From the NCBI GenBank assembly GCA_965228855.1, contig CBDDIJ010000002.1, forward strand, positions 544,001-608,000: 64,000 bases of DNA, written 5' to 3'. The translations under genes were made by a program, and so were the position numbers. The notes below the pieces were generated by a model. That model saw nothing but the letters and a program-made list of their open reading frames with translations. It was not told the DNA's origin and did no database searches. Numbering within the stretch: position 1 is the first letter of the stretch; each line of letters opens with the position of its first letter. Positions 34,768 to 49,562 of the stretch are shown here, piece after piece. The stretch comes from Candidatus Obscuribacterales bacterium. Lineage in GTDB: Bacteria > Cyanobacteriota > Vampirovibrionia > Obscuribacterales > Obscuribacteraceae.

Positions 34768-35119
34768 GGCGCCCGGAGGCTCCGCAGATACCGTCAAAGC
34801 GCTCGGTGGTCATTCGAGCAATCGCACAGTCAACGACGTCGTGCGCAACGCCAAGATAATTTCCGGCGCGGGCAACGTTCGCGGCGCACCCTAAGCACTA
34901 TCCGATAGCGGCGCTACGAGAGAAATGCGAGAAAAAAGAGACGGTCATTTGCGGAGCAGTCAAAGTCGCACCGGTTGCAGGTGACACGCCGCCGCTCAAA
35001 TCGCTTGCAGACCGAACGGGTGTTACCGATCGCGCCACCGAATTTGTTCAGCAAAAATCGAAGAGTCCCCAAAAGGCGAAAAGGCAAAGCCCGCAACAGA
35101 CGATGCGAACAAACAGCAC
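34768..35119 (+). pseudogene. Degenerate duplicate of the 3' half of the 31667-32353 gene
   Basis: Long near-matches to 31951-32320 (gtgcgcaacgccaagataatt, ggagcagtcaaagtcgcaccggtt, gatgcgaacaaacagcac) with indels. Confidence 0.85.
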
Positions 35120-35652
35120 CATGTGCTCTACCGTTAGCAGGGAAGCGGCAACGAACGAGCAGACAATCAACACATTGTCTCGCTACAAAGGCAGCGTAAC
35201 TAGGCACTGCAGACGCGCCTTTGCGACGCGCCAATTTTACTCTGCCTAAAATAGCCATTTTAAGCAATGACAATCGGACGACAAACTTTCAGATTGCCCA
35301 AAGGCAGCAGCTACACTCAGATTTTCGATTGGTGTTGCTTGCGCCAAACACAGCCGAAAGTAGGTGTTTTAGGCTGACTTTTGTCAAAAAAGGAGCGCTG
35401 ATAATTCGCTCCTGAAAAGTTCCTAGAAGGTTAAGAGTAGGAACTTATCGGTCAAAAAAGCTTAGCACCAACCTCGAATAGCCCAGACTTCGTTTAGCAA
35501 TGGCTTTATATTCCGTCACCATTTTAAAAGTCGGAATTGTGTCTTCAAAAAAAGAAAAATGAAATTTAAAATTGGTCCAGATCGATGCGTGTGGCTATTG
35601 TTTTTTTCTTGGGCTAAAGGGGATTCATGTGAACGCAGACGAAGAGGGAGAG

Positions 35653-36609
35653 ATGTCGGCGCAAAGTTATTTAAACCGCGCCTTAAGGATTATTCAAAAA
35701 CATGCTTTGAACAGTGATTTAGTCAATTGGCCGGAGCTTAGAGAACAGTGTTTTCGAATGGCTCGGGGAGCTAAAAGTAATACTGAAACTTACGAGGCAA
35801 TCCGTCATGCCATTCAAAGTCTCGGAGACGGACACAGCTTTCTTCTCGTGCCGAAGTTTCAATCAGAGGAGGTGGAGGGATCGCCGCCGAGCGCCGTGCC
35901 GGTTTCTCGGCCCAGCATCGCGAGTTTCTATTTTGAGGAATTCCACGTAGCAGCAATCAAGGTTCCTTCTTTCTCATCAATTCTTCAACCAAATCGCCTA
36001 GAACTCGAAACACAGTTTTCTGCTGAAATGCAACAAACAATTGCTCAACAGCTTCTTCGGCGTCCAAAAGGATGGATTGTTGACTTGCGAGGAAACATGG
36101 GCGGTAACATGTGGCCAATGCTGTGTGGATTAGGTCCACTGATGGGACAAGAGGTGGTCGGGTATTTCAAAGCTTCAAAGCACTGTCTCGCGTGGTTCTA
36201 TTTTCTAGGCAGAGCGGGTCTTCGAAGCATGGATGGCACTGAGACCGTCAAAGTAGAAATTCAACACCCGGTCCTTCATCAAATAACTGAGAGCGTTCCT
36301 GTTGCGGTTTTGATTGACCAAACTACAGCAAGTTCCGGAGAAGCTATCGGAATTGCATTTCGCAGCCGGCTAAACACGCGCTTTTTCGGGCAGCAATCTC
36401 GCGGACTTTGTACAGGAAACGGACCGGTCGAATTGAGTGATGGAGTTCAACTAATCCTGACAAAAACTGTTTTCCTAGACCGACAAGGCTCCTCTTATCC
36501 AAATGGGATTTTTCCCGACGTGTTCGTTGAACCAACAGATGCAAATCCTACGGACGGAGACCGAACAGTTGACGCGGCTCTCAGCTGGTTTAAAAGACAT
36601 CATGTGTAG
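35653..36609 (+). CDS. S41 family peptidase, nisin-resistance-protein (NSR)-like
   Basis: LGDGHS, VDLRGNMGGNMWPML.GL, TASSGE, GIFPDV. Confidence 0.85.
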   Translation: MSAQSYLNRALRIIQKHALNSDLVNWPELREQCFRMARGAKSNTETYEAIRHAIQSLGDGHSFLLVPKFQSEEVEGSPPSAVPVSRPSIASFYFEEFHVAAIKVPSFSSILQPNRLELETQFSAEMQQTIAQQLLRRPKGWIVDLRGNMGGNMWPMLCGLGPLMGQEVVGYFKASKHCLAWFYFLGRAGLRSMDGTETVKVEIQHPVLHQITESVPVAVLIDQTTASSGEAIGIAFRSRLNTRFFGQQSRGLCTGNGPVELSDGVQLILTKTVFLDRQGSSYPNGIFPDVFVEPTDANPTDGDRTVDAALSWFKRHHV

Positions 36610-36612
36610 AAG

Positions 36613-36642
36613 CGAACGAGGCGATCAGTGACCGCCTCGTTC
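36613..36642. terminator. Hairpin between convergent S41 and lanB genes
   Basis: gaacgaggcg/cgcctcgttc inverted repeat. Confidence 0.55.
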
Positions 36643-36647
36643 AAGTT

Positions 36648-39600
36648 CTATACAGCCACCGATTGGGAACTTTGATTCTCTGTATTACAGGGTCGCATGA
36701 TCAGCGCCTCTACGCTGTTGGAAAGAAGGGCAAGGGTTTCGTTCTCAGCTTTCCTATCAATTCCTAGAAGGCGGTTACAGTGCATGTGAATGCACGCGCT
36801 CAAAATACTGAGCAAGGGCTGGGTTAACTTGCCATTTTCTTCAAGCTTACGTAACTCCCGACCAATTCGTTTGATACCGGACATCGAGTGGAAGCGGATT
36901 GCGTGAGCGATATTCTTAAGTTCGGTATTGCACGTTTTCATTGGGCTCGTTAAGGCAGCGTACAAGTCATTCTTCCAGACTCTATATTCTGCGGAGACAG
37001 AACGCTTAATGCCCAACGGGAAAGCATTCTTCAACAACTCTCTCTTCTCCTCGTTGCTAATGCCCAACGAGCTTAGAAGGTTGTCTATCGACAGTATGCA
37101 CGCTAGGCGTCGATCAAGACTCTTTATTTCCGGCATCGATAACAATTGGCATGCATTTATCGAATCGATACAGAAAAGCTCCTCAACAAGACTCATAGCA
37201 AGTGTTCCGCCGTAACGTTCAACTTCACGATCGTAAGTCATGACTGAGAACTCGGAGCACACGTCGGCACTGGCTAACTGGTTGGCCCACGGCAAGATTT
37301 TTGAAAGCAGAGTTTCATACGCTACTTCAGTATGAAACCTTACGCGCAAGTGATCTCCAGCGCTGTCTTGGTAGCGCACAAAAAACCACTCTTTCAAAAA
37401 TCCTTGGTCGGTCAGAGAATTCGCCATACTATTGCATTCACGAATCGCAGCTTCCTGAATACTAGTGCCACAGTTTAGCCGCAAGTACAACCAGTCACTT
37501 CCCGGGAGTCGTAGGTAATCACTACGAGTGTTTGGCATTACTGGCTGAAATTGCAGTAGCTTTGACTCGCTTTTCTGGGCATCTTTCAGCAAATCGATTC
37601 GCACAAGACTTACGACTATTTCGGACATGTAGTGGCCGTCATCTGTTGAGTGCCAGTTATGGCAAGGCAAATATTCGCGTAGCGTACGTGCCGATCCTCT
37701 TGCAAGAGCGGAACGAAGCAACTCACAATCCTCTGTCAAAGTCAGATTTAAGAGCAGAGGGCGATCATCATCCTTACCAAAAGACATTTGAACAAATGAG
37801 GGCACCTTCCAAACTGTTCGCCACTTTTGTAAGTGATTGAAAAATGCTTTCGGGGTGTTCTTGGAAATTACAGATATCTCTTTGAGGTCCCACTGTGCAG
37901 ACCGCAGGACCAGATTTCCAACAGTCAACCGAGGAAGAAAGGGTAGTTTTTCTGCTGTGCCCCAATTAAACTCCGACACGTTTGGGGAGTCATCGGCTGC
38001 AATTTCAAGTAGAAAGCGGATTGCATTAGGTGCTGAAGCCCAATTGAGCATGTTGTTAGATTTTGCGATTATCTTTTGACCAGTCTGATTCCATCGAGCG
38101 CAGAAACGGCCATCTTTATCTAATCCCACAACAATTTCTGAGAGTGGAATGTCGTTGGAGCTGGAATTCGGATAGCAGCGGGCGATTATCGAATAATTTC
38201 TGAAGCCCCGTACGGTAGACACGTTCCCGGCCCTAGATTTAGCTGGCCAATAACTTACATCTGCGTAGATTGCGGATCTATCTTCTGCTTCCTCGACTAC
38301 GGCGATATTTCTCAAAAATTCGTTGGCCTCTTCTCCGAACATATCCGCGAATCGACCAAGCGTTCGACCAGCTCCAATCTCACCAGCTCTCGGTGCGACC
38401 GCAACTTTGAAGTTTCCAGCATCAATATCTTGACGAGAGTCTGCCAGAATGTTGACAAACAAATCCAGACTTGATGGAAGAGCGACTTGTGTCTGTGGAG
38501 TCTCAAGTGTTTTCAGGTCTGTTTCAGAGAGCTCAACCGCAGTCACCCCGTCCTTCAGAGCAGTCGAGGCTATACTGAGAAGCAACTGCTCCCTTTTTTG
38601 CAGCGACTCGGGCGTTGATTGGCGAATGGGAAAGGGACAGCCTAAGCCGAAAGTTTCATCCAGTAATTCGAGAATTGGTATTTCCCGACCCATCTGATAC
38701 CTGTTCCGAAAGGCCGCTGCAAATTTGGTTAACCCACGCGTTGCTTTTACAGTGTTCAAACGGATACACAGTTCGGCAGCTTTCGACACTTCCACTGCTA
38801 CTTTGTTCGAGAGCATCTTCCCCTGTAGCCCTAAGGACGAATCCACTTGAATTGCATTCCCTCCGTCCGTGTCCGTTGGTCGCGAGGTTTTTAAAAGCTC
38901 AACCAGACGAAGATATTCAACGCTGGATTTGGTAATTCCGTTATCCCAGTTGCTCAAAGCCGCTTTTATTTTTTCCAGTGTACGGGCGTCCGAATGCCTT
39001 CGAAACGTGGGATTGTTGAGCAGATCACGCAGTGGGTCATCAGTGAGCAAAGGCATTCGTAGTTCTGATATGAGGATAGATAAGTCGCACATCTGGTGAA
39101 AAGCATCTTCAACCAACTCACGATCCGCTTGAAACTCACTAGCAATTTGAGCAGCGACTTTTGCGAAAGTTTTCGTCCCCTGGCAAAGGTCTAAGATGCG
39201 AGTGACTGCAGCCGTAACCCTAATGCTCACAGTTTTATTTTTTGAATTGATTGGAGTAATCCAGATACGGTTTGCTGCGTTAAACGCTTCCGGATTTTGC
39301 CGATAGCGCAGCTTCCTGCGGAAAGTGCGGTCACTTTCCAGCTCCTCGACTAAATTCATTATCAGCGTAGAATCAGTCCGTGAGCGTGTCCGGTGATTAC
39401 CAGAGAACGATAAATCTGTTTTGGATCCGAAATGACCCAATGCAACGCCCGCGAAAAGTCCAAAGGGAGTCGGTCTTGAGGACATTCTTTTCTGATACTG
39501 ATACCACTTGCTTTCGGCTTTTTCGCCAGCGTTGTTGAATAGCGATGGACTTGCCACTGCAACCGCAGTCCGAAATAACTCGCTGAATTTCTCTGGCAAA

Positions 39601-39680
39601 GTAGCATCGGCGCATTCGATAGGAAGTAAAGGCGAACGGAGTAGGAAGGTATCTAATACCTTGTAGCTTGCCTTCGGCAT
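36648..39680 (-). CDS. lanB: Class I lanthipeptide dehydratase, full length (glutamylation plus elimination domains)
   Basis: FLLRSPLLP, RMSSRPTPFGLFAGV, GRFA, FLPRL, WLYLRL, WFFVRYQD..HLRVRF, YDREVERYGG, HMHCNRL; 1010 aa. Confidence 0.95.
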   Translation of the reverse strand: MPKASYKVLDTFLLRSPLLPIECADATLPEKFSELFRTAVAVASPSLFNNAGEKAESKWYQYQKRMSSRPTPFGLFAGVALGHFGSKTDLSFSGNHRTRSRTDSTLIMNLVEELESDRTFRRKLRYRQNPEAFNAANRIWITPINSKNKTVSIRVTAAVTRILDLCQGTKTFAKVAAQIASEFQADRELVEDAFHQMCDLSILISELRMPLLTDDPLRDLLNNPTFRRHSDARTLEKIKAALSNWDNGITKSSVEYLRLVELLKTSRPTDTDGGNAIQVDSSLGLQGKMLSNKVAVEVSKAAELCIRLNTVKATRGLTKFAAAFRNRYQMGREIPILELLDETFGLGCPFPIRQSTPESLQKREQLLLSIASTALKDGVTAVELSETDLKTLETPQTQVALPSSLDLFVNILADSRQDIDAGNFKVAVAPRAGEIGAGRTLGRFADMFGEEANEFLRNIAVVEEAEDRSAIYADVSYWPAKSRAGNVSTVRGFRNYSIIARCYPNSSSNDIPLSEIVVGLDKDGRFCARWNQTGQKIIAKSNNMLNWASAPNAIRFLLEIAADDSPNVSEFNWGTAEKLPFLPRLTVGNLVLRSAQWDLKEISVISKNTPKAFFNHLQKWRTVWKVPSFVQMSFGKDDDRPLLLNLTLTEDCELLRSALARGSARTLREYLPCHNWHSTDDGHYMSEIVVSLVRIDLLKDAQKSESKLLQFQPVMPNTRSDYLRLPGSDWLYLRLNCGTSIQEAAIRECNSMANSLTDQGFLKEWFFVRYQDSAGDHLRVRFHTEVAYETLLSKILPWANQLASADVCSEFSVMTYDREVERYGGTLAMSLVEELFCIDSINACQLLSMPEIKSLDRRLACILSIDNLLSSLGISNEEKRELLKNAFPLGIKRSVSAEYRVWKNDLYAALTSPMKTCNTELKNIAHAIRFHSMSGIKRIGRELRKLEENGKLTQPLLSILSACIHMHCNRLLGIDRKAENETLALLSNSVEALIMRPCNTENQSSQSVAV

Positions 39681-39696
39681 TTAGGTCTCCTTTAAG

Positions 39697-40992
39697 TTAG
39701 GAAAGAAGAGCAATACGGTCCCACTTGGGAGCCACCGGATTGATTGAGGCTATGAGGACCAAAAGAATTCCGGAGACTCCAGTCATCAAGCTTAAATCGG
39801 TTGTATCGTCTCCATTCGTTCCGAGTTTCCAAAATTTCAAGTCAGCCAACGAGTCGTATTGATCCACAATCTTGTCAAACAAGTCTAAACACTGAGCTTG
39901 ATGTTCTGCACTACCCGTTTCATTGAAAAAACGGAGCATAATCTGTAACAGCCCCGCCACTCCGTGGCAGAAAGTTGGTGTGCTGGCTTCCCAATCGGTA
40001 CCTGCTCTAGAAACCGCTTGTAGCGCAACTCTTTTGTTATCGTCTCTATTAAGAGCAACTCCTGACAGATATAACGCTCTGGCGACTCCGGGAGCTCCAT
40101 AGCACCAAGCGGCACGATGACACCGCTCAGTAGACGTCGCGTTTCGCACGATACTGCCGTCGAAGGTACATGCCACGGGCCAGTTTAAACCGGCTGTTGT
40201 AGTTTCTAAACGATTCATGATTATAAACTGTGAGATGCGTTCGATTGCTTCTTGCATGCCACTGCATTTGATACCATTCTGCCAAGCTAATGATAAAAGC
40301 ATGAGCAGTCCTGGCAACCCATGCGAAAGCCCTAAATTGATTAGACCGTTTTTGTACGCACGCTTGCTTTTATCTTGAATTGGAAGCATAGATCTCGGAG
40401 TATAAAAGCCCATAAGGTCATCCTTACTATTTGTGCGTGTACACAGCCAGAGCAATATGGCACTGAGAGCGTCAGAATCTCTACCACTTTGCACCCTTTC
40501 GAGAAGGTATGCACCGACTCCGGTAAGCCCGGAGATCAAGTCGTAGTGACTTGGTGATAGGCCCCTCTCAGAGCTAGATAGTTGTCGCAGAAGAACCACA
40601 ATATGTTCCGAGACCGTTTGATCAATAGCCGACAAAAGCTGCTTGTATGCTTGACCTTGTTTCACCAGGGAACAGTGCAGACCAAGACCAGCTAAGCCAC
40701 CATGTAATGCAATACTTGAAGAACGACGAGTTAATTGGAACGCCTCCTGGAGATGAGCATGCGAAACGTAATCAAGGTTCGAGTCAGGCATAAGCTCATG
40801 AGCCACACCTAGAGCGTACATTAGTCCCACATGAGAACGCTGATTGACTTTCAAAACCAGCGGTGAGTCGGAGGATTTGATGATCGACTTTACGATGTTT
40901 TGGTCAGTACATGATTGGACAAGCGACCGAATCACTTCCTGAGCTTTAATTTTTCGAGGTTCATCAAGAGGGGATGCCCACATTTTTTTCAT
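39697..40992 (-). CDS. lanC: Lanthionine cyclase
   Basis: YDLISGLTG, NLGLSHG, AWCYG, FCHG zinc-ligand motifs. Confidence 0.95.
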   Translation of the reverse strand: MKKMWASPLDEPRKIKAQEVIRSLVQSCTDQNIVKSIIKSSDSPLVLKVNQRSHVGLMYALGVAHELMPDSNLDYVSHAHLQEAFQLTRRSSSIALHGGLAGLGLHCSLVKQGQAYKQLLSAIDQTVSEHIVVLLRQLSSSERGLSPSHYDLISGLTGVGAYLLERVQSGRDSDALSAILLWLCTRTNSKDDLMGFYTPRSMLPIQDKSKRAYKNGLINLGLSHGLPGLLMLLSLAWQNGIKCSGMQEAIERISQFIIMNRLETTTAGLNWPVACTFDGSIVRNATSTERCHRAAWCYGAPGVARALYLSGVALNRDDNKRVALQAVSRAGTDWEASTPTFCHGVAGLLQIMLRFFNETGSAEHQAQCLDLFDKIVDQYDSLADLKFWKLGTNGDDTTDLSLMTGVSGILLVLIASINPVAPKWDRIALLS

Positions 40993-41015
40993 CCTTTAAA
41001 CGATTGTTGAATGAT

Positions 41016-41047
41016 CAAAAACAGGGAGGGCTTTCGCCCTCCCTGTT
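41016..41047 (-). terminator. Terminator/attenuator stem-loop between rhs and lanC
   Basis: Minus strand aacagggagggc-GAAA-gccctccctgtt-ttt. Confidence 0.8.
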
Positions 41048-41081
41048 CTAGCCCAGATTTTGAAAGGTCAACAGAAGTTAC

Positions 41082-46550
<5,469 letters not shown>

Positions 46551-46629
46551 GTTTGCTTCCTTTTTGTTCGTATTGAAACCAGCTGCAACATCCTGTTGAA
46601 GCTGGTTAAACTGCAGTGATTGATTGCGG

Positions 46630-46776
46630 TTAGCAGCCACCACCACCGCAGGTGGTGACAACAGAAGTCCTGTTGCCAGCGGCATCGTAGTTGTAGACTA
46701 CGGTCGTGCCATTGGCAAAAGTAATTTTCTTGAGCCAGCCCTGGGGCCAGTACTCATATGTAGCGGCGTCTGTCAT
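46630..46776 (-). CDS. 48-aa stand-alone YD/RHS-repeat peptide (below the ORF track cutoff)
   Basis: AAGGAG RBS; MTDAATYEYWPQGWLKKITFANGTTVVYNYDAAGNRTSVVTTCGGGGC. Confidence 0.8.
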   Translation of the reverse strand: MTDAATYEYWPQGWLKKITFANGTTVVYNYDAAGNRTSVVTTCGGGGC

Positions 46777-47403
46777 TTTGTTCTCCTTGATAGTTTTCAG
46801 CAGTAAAGTCTCGACTGCATTACTTCGCGACCTGAATGACTAGTAAGCACTCATGTTTCATTTTCTTTGCTGCCGATCCGGTCGGACTTACAACAAGAAA
46901 CACTTGCGTCACCAGCCACTCTGGAGCCATCTCACTGACGAAATGGCTCATCTAAAAGAAGGACAATCGCCCTTCTTTTAGATAAACCATTTCTTGTTCA
47001 AATTGGATTCAATAGAAAACTGAAACCGCGCCATCCTGTCAAAGACAGGACGGATTTTGCTCTATAAAGTTACGGTTCAGGACAATTCAGAAGGTTTGGA
47101 GATGCGGCTCTTGCGGTGTCGGTGAATCAATTTGTTTCCTGACCATAGCCATAACATGCTCCAAATTGCAAGGCAAACAAGCCACCGCCCGTAGTGGCTT
47201 TCAAGAAGTCTTAATACCGCAGGCGGTGGCTATTTCGCCGGTTTCAAATCCAACACATCCGGCGCAGGATACCTATATTCTTTGTCGCAGCTTAGGCAAA
47301 GTCGGTTAGCTAGACTAGCGCGAACACCACTTCGCCTATATAAAAGTAATTCTGATTTTTATCCTTATAGAGCGGACCGAATTGCTGAAGCAGCGCCAAG
47401 CTG

Positions 47404-47964
47404 CTAACGACTTTTGATGGTTCCGTTTGAAATGCTTTTGCGGAAAACATCGCGCAAAGCAGGGTCCTTCAAGTTCTCGATGATGGCGCGCTGCTCCTTC
47501 GCCAGGTCCGTATCCGCAAGCCGGAGAACCGTGTCGAGCGCCTGCTTGTAGAGTGCCGCAATCTGCTCGTTATTCAGCTGGCCATTCATGCCCTGCTCGC
47601 AGAGGCGATATAGGCTCTCGCGCAGAACAAGCACAAGCTGTGTTCGCCCTGCGAGCTCGACGATCTTCTGCTGAAGTTCAACCTGTGCGTTCGCATCAGC
47701 ATTCGCCTGCTGGAGCTTCAGGTTTGCGATGATATTGGTGATGGACTCCATCGCGACATCGGGCGCGGGCTCAGCACACATCTTCATGCTGCCGTCACCG
47801 GGCAGGATATATGCACCACGCCTGGTTGCGTCGTAATCAATCGCGTAAGATTTACCTGTCTCCAACGCATGAGTGCGCATGGGTGATGTCATTGACGCGC
47901 ATCCAGACAGAAGCGAAGCTGCACAGATTGCCGCAATACAAAGGGATAGACTTTTCTTCATCAC
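47404..47964 (-). CDS. Lipoprotein, hypothetical
   Basis: Lipobox LSGC; CAEPAPD, RESLYRLCE motifs. Confidence 0.75.
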   Translation of the reverse strand: MMKKSLSLCIAAICAASLLSGCASMTSPMRTHALETGKSYAIDYDATRRGAYILPGDGSMKMCAEPAPDVAMESITNIIANLKLQQANADANAQVELQQKIVELAGRTQLVLVLRESLYRLCEQGMNGQLNNEQIAALYKQALDTVLRLADTDLAKEQRAIIENLKDPALRDVFRKSISNGTIKSR

Positions 47965-47972
47965 GATTTCCT

Positions 47973-48431
47973 TTACTTTAGTTTCGGCTGGAAGAATTTC
48001 AGTTTCATCGCTGCCGCTTCAATGATTGGAATTGTCAGCGTGGTCAGTATCAGCAAAAGAGAGCCATAGACAGGTCGGTAGATGTCCGGGAAGGTCAGTG
48101 CAAAAGGACCGCCCAGGGCAAAGACCCAGACCGCAAATGCCACTGTTGCCGCACAACAGTGAAAACGTACAGATTGCTTCTCAGCTTCCTCTGACGGGCG
48201 ATACTTTATGTATAGAGGGGTGAGGACGAGGAGGAAAACAAAAACGCCCCAGTAAAGCCACACAGCAATCGGATCTGAAACCATTTCCTCTCGCAAAATA
48301 CCGTCGATAGCAATGTACGCTGCATTCAATTCGCCCGGTATGTATTTGATGAGCTTCTCAAAATATGAGCTCGTACGTGGATCCGGTGGCGTTGGAGTAT
48401 CGGAATTCTTGTCGTCAGGTTCATCAGACAT
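47973..48431 (-). CDS. Hypothetical membrane protein
   Basis: Y.EKL.KYIPGE...AY, AF.VWVFALGGPF; 3-4 TM. Confidence 0.7.
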   Translation of the reverse strand: MSDEPDDKNSDTPTPPDPRTSSYFEKLIKYIPGELNAAYIAIDGILREEMVSDPIAVWLYWGVFVFLLVLTPLYIKYRPSEEAEKQSVRFHCCAATVAFAVWVFALGGPFALTFPDIYRPVYGSLLLILTTLTIPIIEAAAMKLKFFQPKLK

Positions 48432-49562
48432 GACCGAGCCTTTCACTAGGATTGAGAGATGACAGTTCCTAACTTCGTTGACAGTAGACAACGGAAGAGT
48501 CTCGTTGCGCAGTCAGTGACTTTACTCCCGGATTTTGTGCCGTCGGGATATTAGAGGTCTTACTAAAAGGTGGCCGTATCCGCATCGCAAAAGAGAGTTT
48601 GAAAACTTCTTGTTTGGCGGTACATTTATTGCAGTGGTGGCAGACCTCAAGTAAAGGTGGAAGTTAAGAGATAAGCCGATACTAGTCAGTCCGCCGCCAC
48701 TGAATCAATGATCACACCGCAAACACAACTGTAACGAATTTCAGTCAGTCCGATGAAATCCGAAAACGTTGACTATGCAATGCTTTGTAGCCGACAGGCT
48801 ACAGTGACCCTTTACACTTCATCATTCCTTTAACTTTCAAAAGTCCCAGCACCAGCGGCTTCTCGAAATACCTCCGCTAGCGATTGAAGCTGAACCTCCG
48901 TCGGCTTCACATAACTTCTATGAGGGCGCGGTAGCGCGCTTTGCAGAGCAATGGCTGCTTTCCGTATCATTACGAGATGAAGTCTTCGTATACATGACAC
49001 CGTATTTAGTGACGGACGAAAGTCTGCACAGGTTCGCAAATAGATAGCCTTGAGATTTCCTTAGATTGGAATAATCGTACGAACGGGTGATTGAAAAAGA
49101 TTCTTTCCTACGGATAATAGTATTCGAACGCTTATCTCTTGACATCCAGCTAAATGCCACTCAAATGCTTGCTCTGTCTGACGAGCGAGCATTTTTGCAC
49201 CTGGCGGAAATAGGGGTCGCTAGATGCGCAAACCCTTTCAGAACCCCTTCGCCAGCCTGATTTTCATTTCAATCGTTCGAGCAGCGGCCAAATCAGCACT
49301 GTCGTGCTTTCCAAAACAATACGCGAATGAAACTGCTGGCTTGAAGGAGAAGACTTCCCATAGACAGGATGCAATCGAGCTTTTCACCATCTGTCTGAAC
49401 GGCTAAGGTCATCAGTGGCTGAGCGACGACGAAACAAGAGTCTTTGAATATTTCTTCGAACAAGATGGGAACGAGCGTAAGGAATTTTGTCAGATATTTG
49501 GAGCAGACAAGATTGTCGAGAATGTCGGTGAGTTTGTCGGCTATTTTCTAGTTCGAAAAGTA

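Follow-up and report, generated by a model that had tools for sequence, protein, structure and literature searches.

Can the cargo of a polymorphic toxin be a peptide that is chemically modified before it is packed? This question is raised by a locus in a 64,000-nucleotide stretch of DNA (the window; positions 544,001 to 608,000 of contig CBDDIJ010000002.1, assembly GCA_965228855.1) from a Candidatus Obscuribacterales bacterium. On the minus strand, a mini-YD gene, an RHS gene, a hairpin and the lanthipeptide genes lanC and lanB follow each other in this order, all read in the window sequence. A preliminary description had proposed that the toxin slot of the RHS protein holds the substrate of LanB and LanC. 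Its gene order, coordinates and motifs were all found again, and its gene list stands except for a convergent S41 peptidase gene (35572..36609, plus strand) that it had overlooked. Judging from sequence and comparison, the last 74 amino acids of the RHS protein are very likely a LanB/LanC substrate. We further propose, with a probability of about 0.7, that this tail is modified by LanB and LanC and that it is carried and released by the RHS shell as the cargo of a polymorphic toxin.

The RHS/YD protein (41082..46550, minus strand) has 1822 amino acids from Met 46550. This start was taken in place of the longer one given by the open reading frame (ORF) finder (46685), which overlaps the mini-YD gene. 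The protein comprises a transglutaminase-like N-terminal region, DUF6531, a YD shell, an RHS core and the tail. The core end (41307..41450, minus strand) carries both aspartate motifs, RFLQPDP and DPLGL, separated by a 15-residue insert, fits the pattern PxxxxDPxGL and is a predicted self-cleavage site. Self-cleavage after the second DPLGL is demonstrated for Rhs1 of P. laumondii (PMC8636562). DPLGL occupies 41321-41307, and an FDLDV box begins at 41306. The tail that starts with this box (74 amino acids, 41082..41306, minus strand) is a candidate class I lanthipeptide precursor with an acidic DDG repeat and a basic end. It contains 3 Cys and 12 Ser/Thr, with Ser/Thr ahead of Cys27, Cys33 and Cys61, which confirms that an FDLDV-bearing Ser/Thr/Cys peptide directly follows DPLGL. 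In MadA, a peptide made on the ribosome and modified after translation (RiPP), F, L and V of the FDLDV stretch contact the RiPP recognition element (RRE) of MadB (PMC12241602). The Leu of DPLGL takes the position preceding F in ordinary LanA boxes; such boxes beside other lanB genes read DLFDLDVQ and DEFDLDVR. Long ORFs totalling 2.28 million residues contain the pattern F[DN]LD[VIL] 9 times, or about 0.0002 times per 60 amino acids.

Judged by their conserved residues, the products of lanC and lanB are catalytically intact. The nine residues essential in MadB, listed in PMC12241602 together with the requirement of LanB for Glu-tRNA, correspond to R65, R69, T71, D103, D280, R443, R781, R822 and H965 of the window LanB, and all nine positions are invariant in 50/50 aligned LanBs. 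This dehydratase is full-length (1010 amino acids, 36648..39680, minus strand; PF04738 and PF14028), and a weak PqqD match (E 0.03) at residues 157-192 marks an RRE-like region. The LanC cyclase (431 amino acids, 39697..40992, minus strand; PF05147, E 5e-47) retains H224, C297, C342 and H343, which are invariant in 7/7 aligned LanCs and which, by analogy with NisC, we take to be the zinc ligands and the catalytic His. A single lanB and a single lanC are found in the genome holding the window (G000, 95% complete).

A motif scan of all ORFs of G000 found no credible separate FxLD precursor, and neither a LanT exporter nor a leader protease was present among the 18 window proteins scanned. The absence of a separate lanA, of LanT and of LanP that had been claimed for the locus is thus borne out. 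A genome search with NF038155, the NCBIfam model of FDLD precursors, found no lanA in G000 but was insensitive, since it also missed a positive control, the ordinary class I cluster of G119 (L028:8950-10130) with two FDLDL lanA genes, one of which has many CxxT repeats. A C39-peptidase protein of 911 amino acids is encoded elsewhere in G000, unlinked to the locus. LanB 1-660 predicted in complex with tail 1-38 scored 0.00; the controls were not folded, and the prediction is not used as evidence.

A misassembly at the junction of RHS and tail (41300-41320) had been named as a finding that would overturn the proposal. It is rejected, since public contigs from runs X1 and X4 and from a separate sample (X5) cross the junction unchanged. 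Those of X1 and X4 cover 35000-48500 unbroken and with zero differences, and either run may be the source of the window DNA; the X5 contig covers 40837-41416. The locus sits in a low-GC island, and close to the left part of that island a 127-bp stretch (35000-35126) has a second copy about 2.7 kb away in the run contigs.

The arrangement recurs. lanB is present in 13 of 104 family genomes, and the same 13 were the only ones among 401 genomes of the class, so that none lies outside the family. A search with a single LanB protein over genome contigs found nothing, and a scan of viral contigs for LanB gave two distant loci. An RHS gene stands directly upstream of lanC/lanB in 4 of the 13 lanB-bearing genomes (G000, G028, G075 and G109), and a fifth linked locus is the metagenome contig L168. 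In these five loci the gap from RHS to lanC or lanB is 61-172 nt. The order RHS-lanC-lanB is seen in G000, G075 and G109. The gene after RHS is lanC in four loci and lanB in one, with no immunity gene directly downstream. Among the loci from a broad lanB search, 0/75 in genomes and 3/74 in metagenomes had an RHS core close to lanB; two of the three repeat G075.

The LanBs of the linked loci are only 33-37% identical to that of the window, yet they form one clade with support 1.0, to which all three RHS-near metagenome loci belong and outside which the LanBs of G119, G067 and G032 fall. This tree was built from the labelled LanBs plus the 40 of 127 others that scored best, with fragments below 800 amino acids excluded, and G068, G088 and G015 were not placed. 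The linked shell cores are 48-59% identical and occupy three places in the core tree; a single clade is rejected by the approximately unbiased test (p-AU 0.028, 31-row subset). Because the linked cores are scattered while their LanBs form one clade, the pattern fits the exchange of a cassette, in which tail, lanC and lanB would move together and be joined to different shells. One gain followed by losses may also account for it. Two further loci with lanB differ in layout. In G067 and G068 (L029, L030), lanC is divergent from ABC-exporter-like and membrane-fusion-like genes (by eye), and no precursor was seen there. G068 also has an RHS fragment at a contig end (L279:15688-16254) about 4 kb upstream of lanB, with insertion-sequence-like genes between.

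Of 107 genomes of the order, 66 have RHS cores of the window's family, and the cargo of these cores is variable, with 247 distinct tails. Sister RHS proteins carry the domains PF15607 and PF14040 according to precomputed annotation, which we take to be nuclease toxins. Tails were compared in the loci of about 90 of 182 RHS matches, best-scoring first, together with L168, giving 92 distinct tails. The five linked tails have 45-110 amino acids, 3-12 Cys and Lys-rich ends, whereas the 87 controls (the boundary of one, L260, was mis-cut) have a median of 180 amino acids and a median of 0 Cys. Tails that are both no longer than 110 amino acids and have at least 3 Cys make up 5/5 of the linked set against 4/87 of the controls. 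At least 3 Cys occur in 16/87 control tails, and a gene of about 240 amino acids follows 10 of these 16, including all four short ones (by eye; weak DUF2092 matches in 3). No LanB or LanC was found among the 57 downstream control ORFs scanned (of 67). Tails with paired CxxxC motifs followed by this weakly DUF2092-like gene were noted in L191, L199, L211, L214, L221 and L234, and also in L235, L241, L248 and L260. G000 itself contains about six tandem copies of this arrangement (C5:1245903-1257979). The paired-CxxxC tails and the DUF2092-like gene are probably an undescribed toxin-immunity pair.

The leader box was followed across the family. The pattern [FY]D[LI][DN] lies within the first 60 amino acids of 6/247 tails, and at least 3 Cys follow it in 6/6 boxed tails versus 55/241 unboxed ones (p 2e-4, a post-hoc value, since the box patterns were chosen after part of the data had been seen and the relatives are not independent). 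Both boxed tails of known context stand before lanC-lanB. Among the five linked tails, the box stands at the cleavage site only in that of the window, and the G075 variant lies 44 residues in; the expectation of FxLD right after DPxGL as a general rule therefore fails. In four relatives without known lanB/lanC context, the box lies 8-41 residues into the tail. P0112 and P0121, which belong to one 90% cluster, have DDMFDLD[VI]Q..LPP in common and differ in their Ser/Thr/Cys core. Their shells are near-identical, and a shared leader with a differing core is the usual RiPP pattern. The P0271 tail has DDGFDLN, and the P0333 tail, found after the motif was framed, starts with Met and has DMFDIDL and 15 Cys. 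TLPPI is common to the L168 and P0112 tails. Small FDLD precursors adjoin lanB in 37/149 other loci (2 of 25 listed are false, lying inside lanC). Taken together, recurrent adjacency, short Cys-rich tails and the co-occurrence of box and Cys give strong comparative support to the proposal that the toxin slot holds a LanB/LanC substrate.

Searches with the tails themselves returned little. A profile of the core end and tail gave a clear tail match only to L168's own protein among the 150 matches listed, the tail region of P0112 found only itself, and the P0297 tail was absent from the 104 family genomes searched. RHS tails with Cys repeats or Pro/Cys repeats and without known context are those of P0272, P0274, P0297, P0303, P0306 and P0317. 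P0272 has DMFDD, 18 Cys and a faint match to the radical-SAM Cxxx target family, and the P0306 tail resembles that of L168.

The following mechanism is proposed. In the producer cytoplasm, LanB would bind FDLDV and dehydrate Ser/Thr of the tail, and LanC would close thioether rings with Cys. LanB depends on Glu-tRNA and, at its size, cannot fit into a closed shell, so modification would take place on the full-length protein before shell closure or on a tail that remains outside. As in other Rhs proteins, the core may then cut after DPLGL, and the shell may keep the peptide until delivery. Such caging would substitute for a dedicated exporter and leader protease, and lanC and lanB occupy the place normally held by an immunity gene. 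Finally, and speculatively, the ringed peptide may act on competing cells, perhaps trimmed by the S41 peptidase. This peptidase, which was recognized in the scan of window proteins and is convergent with lanB, also adjoins lanB in G010, G072 and G075. It is present in 21/104 family genomes and adjoins lanB in 4 of those 21. It is a possible candidate for the trimming protease, with a weak link.

The shell that would carry the peptide has Rhs and teneurin-like proteins as its relatives in the PDB. Its transglutaminase-like domain (45960..46343, minus strand; Pfam E 1.7e-5) has Ser at the expected catalytic Cys, and no Cys was present there in 133 homologue matches, so the domain is probably inactive on this residue evidence. 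A model of the N-terminal region (46388-44601) reached a predicted local distance difference test score (pLDDT) of 93 and weakly resembled transglutaminase-like proteases in fold, with no PDB match reaching E <= 0.001; beyond the transglutaminase-like part it had no clear PDB match. PMC13018210 describes teneurin-like shells of bacteria for which no delivery machinery is known. G000 encodes a second RHS type of 2265 amino acids with an N-terminal C39-like domain (C5:239073-245891).

Several observations weigh against modification and release of the tail by this route. Self-cleavage by itself would leave the leader on the peptide. As to export, no PAAR or Phage_GPD (VgrG-type) match was found, and the window RHS has no hydrophobic segment at its N-terminus. 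The suggested association of FxLD tails with lanBC is seen in 2/2 boxed tails of known context, but the linked tails of G028, G109 and L168, three of five, have no FxLD-like box. P0112, P0121, P0271, P0272 and P0333 are database relatives known without genomic context, and the box statistics are post hoc. No RHS tail scanned matched NF038155, which matched one G119 LanA weakly. G028 has RHS-lanB-RHS (L007/L008) without a lanC match in a genome that is 87% complete, and its pathway is possibly dehydration-only. In G096 (L034:9918-10990), an RHS-core fragment without DPxG overlaps the start of a separate precursor-like ORF, which is followed by lanC-lanB. This ORF has DMFDIQV, a Cys/Thr region and Gly-Pro repeats, and is a candidate precursor outside RHS.

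How else could the locus be read? The tail may be modified without being a released weapon, either as a cross-linked element of surface, adhesion or kin recognition, or because LanB and LanC disarm it as immunity. Teneurin C-terminal domains lie outside the shell (PMC8636562), a placement that would remove the access problem, and RHS toxins with an inactive transglutaminase that carry signal peptides are proposed to be surface-anchored (PMC3482391). The lack of a small immunity gene after the linked tails agrees with this reading too. We consider it unlikely, given that the window RHS retains both aspartate motifs and that sister proteins bear recognised toxin domains and highly variable tails. 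It is quite unlikely that a lanA-lanC-lanB set was captured in frame at an RHS recombination point, the precursor being translated from an internal start and its fusion to RHS being incidental. The tails of P0121 and P0333 do start with Met at the junction, a 96-aa ORF of the window would begin at an internal Met (41372), and the G096 precursor-like ORF is separate. Yet the fusion stays in frame in loci whose cores are 48-59% identical and whose LanBs are about 35% identical, and the window tail has no Met of its own, with the nearest AGGAG 15 nt ahead of the internal Met.

RHS and lanB/lanC could also be mere neighbours in mobile conflict islands, the tail being an ordinary small Cys-rich toxin. 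The frequency of RHS cores in the order, the low GC of the region and the control tails with at least 3 Cys would be expected if so, and the LanBs of G010 and G072 belong to the linked clade with no RHS seen. These two loci, however, are truncated: lanC of G010 is 5'-damaged and its short contig has no RHS, and G072 has a cut copy of the G075 lanB. The adjacency is exact and co-oriented in five loci, RHS near lanB is confined in the broad search to the linked clade, and FDLD-type boxes co-occur with Cys cores, which makes mere neighbourhood very improbable. A tail modified by LanB and LanC and released from the RHS shell is the reading we retain.

The remaining features flank or punctuate the locus. 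The mini-YD gene (48 amino acids, 46630..46776, minus strand; YD_repeat match, E 7e-4) has similar small ORFs upstream of RHS in G028 and G075 and is a general partner of the window's RHS family. Farther upstream of RHS (47404..48491, minus strand) lie genes for a lipoprotein (186 amino acids) and a small membrane protein (172 amino acids), which fall in Atlas clusters of unnamed lipoproteins. Look-alikes stand upstream of RHS in G028, G109 and G075 (by eye), and proteins of this kind may help to export or anchor members of the RHS family. Between RHS and lanC, the hairpin (41016..41051, minus strand; z -4.2), which is rich in GC and has a U run, is present as the preliminary description had it, but is not diagnostic. 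A hairpin of -25 kcal/mol or stronger follows 37/87 control RHS genes, and it was rejected as a specific marker.

For the lineage as a whole, we lean slightly towards the view that it keeps a family of RHS containers loading enzymatically ringed peptides as exchangeable cargo. LanB and LanC would be re-tuned to the tail of a 200-kDa protein, in some branches with no FxLD box to guide them, and exporter, leader protease and immunity gene would all be replaced together by the shell; the P0272, P0297 and P0317 tails may extend this to further RiPP chemistries. If true, two well-studied conflict systems, so far described separately, are merged. Lanthipeptides gain a protein container that delivers them, and polymorphic toxins gain a cargo that needs chemical maturation before packing. 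It becomes directly testable in which order the shell folds, the tail is caged and the core cleaves itself, because the rings report the accessibility of the tail. Precursor finders that expect small lanA genes would miss RHS-tail clusters. Furthermore, LanB/LanC pairs with protein tails as substrates, in some cases tails that lack an FxLD box, could serve protein stapling. The claim that no RHS-RiPP hybrid of this kind is described holds within the open literature, where no pairing of RHS and lanthipeptide was found; subscription papers were outside this scope, and supplements of genome-mining surveys could list such loci.

In its workings the locus resembles a class I lanthipeptide pathway coupled to an Rhs polymorphic toxin, but it departs from the usual hallmarks of both, with no small lanA, exporter or immunity gene. 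Like the class I clusters (nisin NisABC, maddinglicin MadABC, the NF038155 LanA), it combines a full-length LanB that has all listed catalytic residues with a LanC that has the zinc and catalytic motifs; the precursor comes first in gene order and bears an FDLDV box and Ser/Thr upstream of Cys. Unlike them, its precursor is the end of an 1822-aa protein rather than a small stand-alone lanA product, no LanT, LanP or immunity gene is linked, three of five linked tails are without the box, and the tails miss NF038155. With Rhs/YD polymorphic toxins (P. laumondii Rhs1, TcC and bacterial teneurin-like proteins), it shares the YD shell, the bipartite aspartate motif ending in DPLGL and a hypervariable tail swapped between shells. 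The probably inactive transglutaminase-like N-terminus is shared with RHS toxins reported by Zhang et al. 2012 (PMC3482391). In contrast to these toxins, the cargo resembles a RiPP precursor and not an enzyme or pore former, modifying enzymes stand in the immunity slot, no match to PAAR or VgrG was found, and the N-terminus lacks a hydrophobic segment. Thioether cross-linking of large proteins is called rarely validated in PMC13692751, which presents the CrpA/CrpC ranthionines. CrpC-type enzymes are radical SAM proteins, and CrpA/CrpC involves no self-cleaving toxin container; like the RHS locus, this system places thioether-forming enzymes beside a protein-sized substrate.

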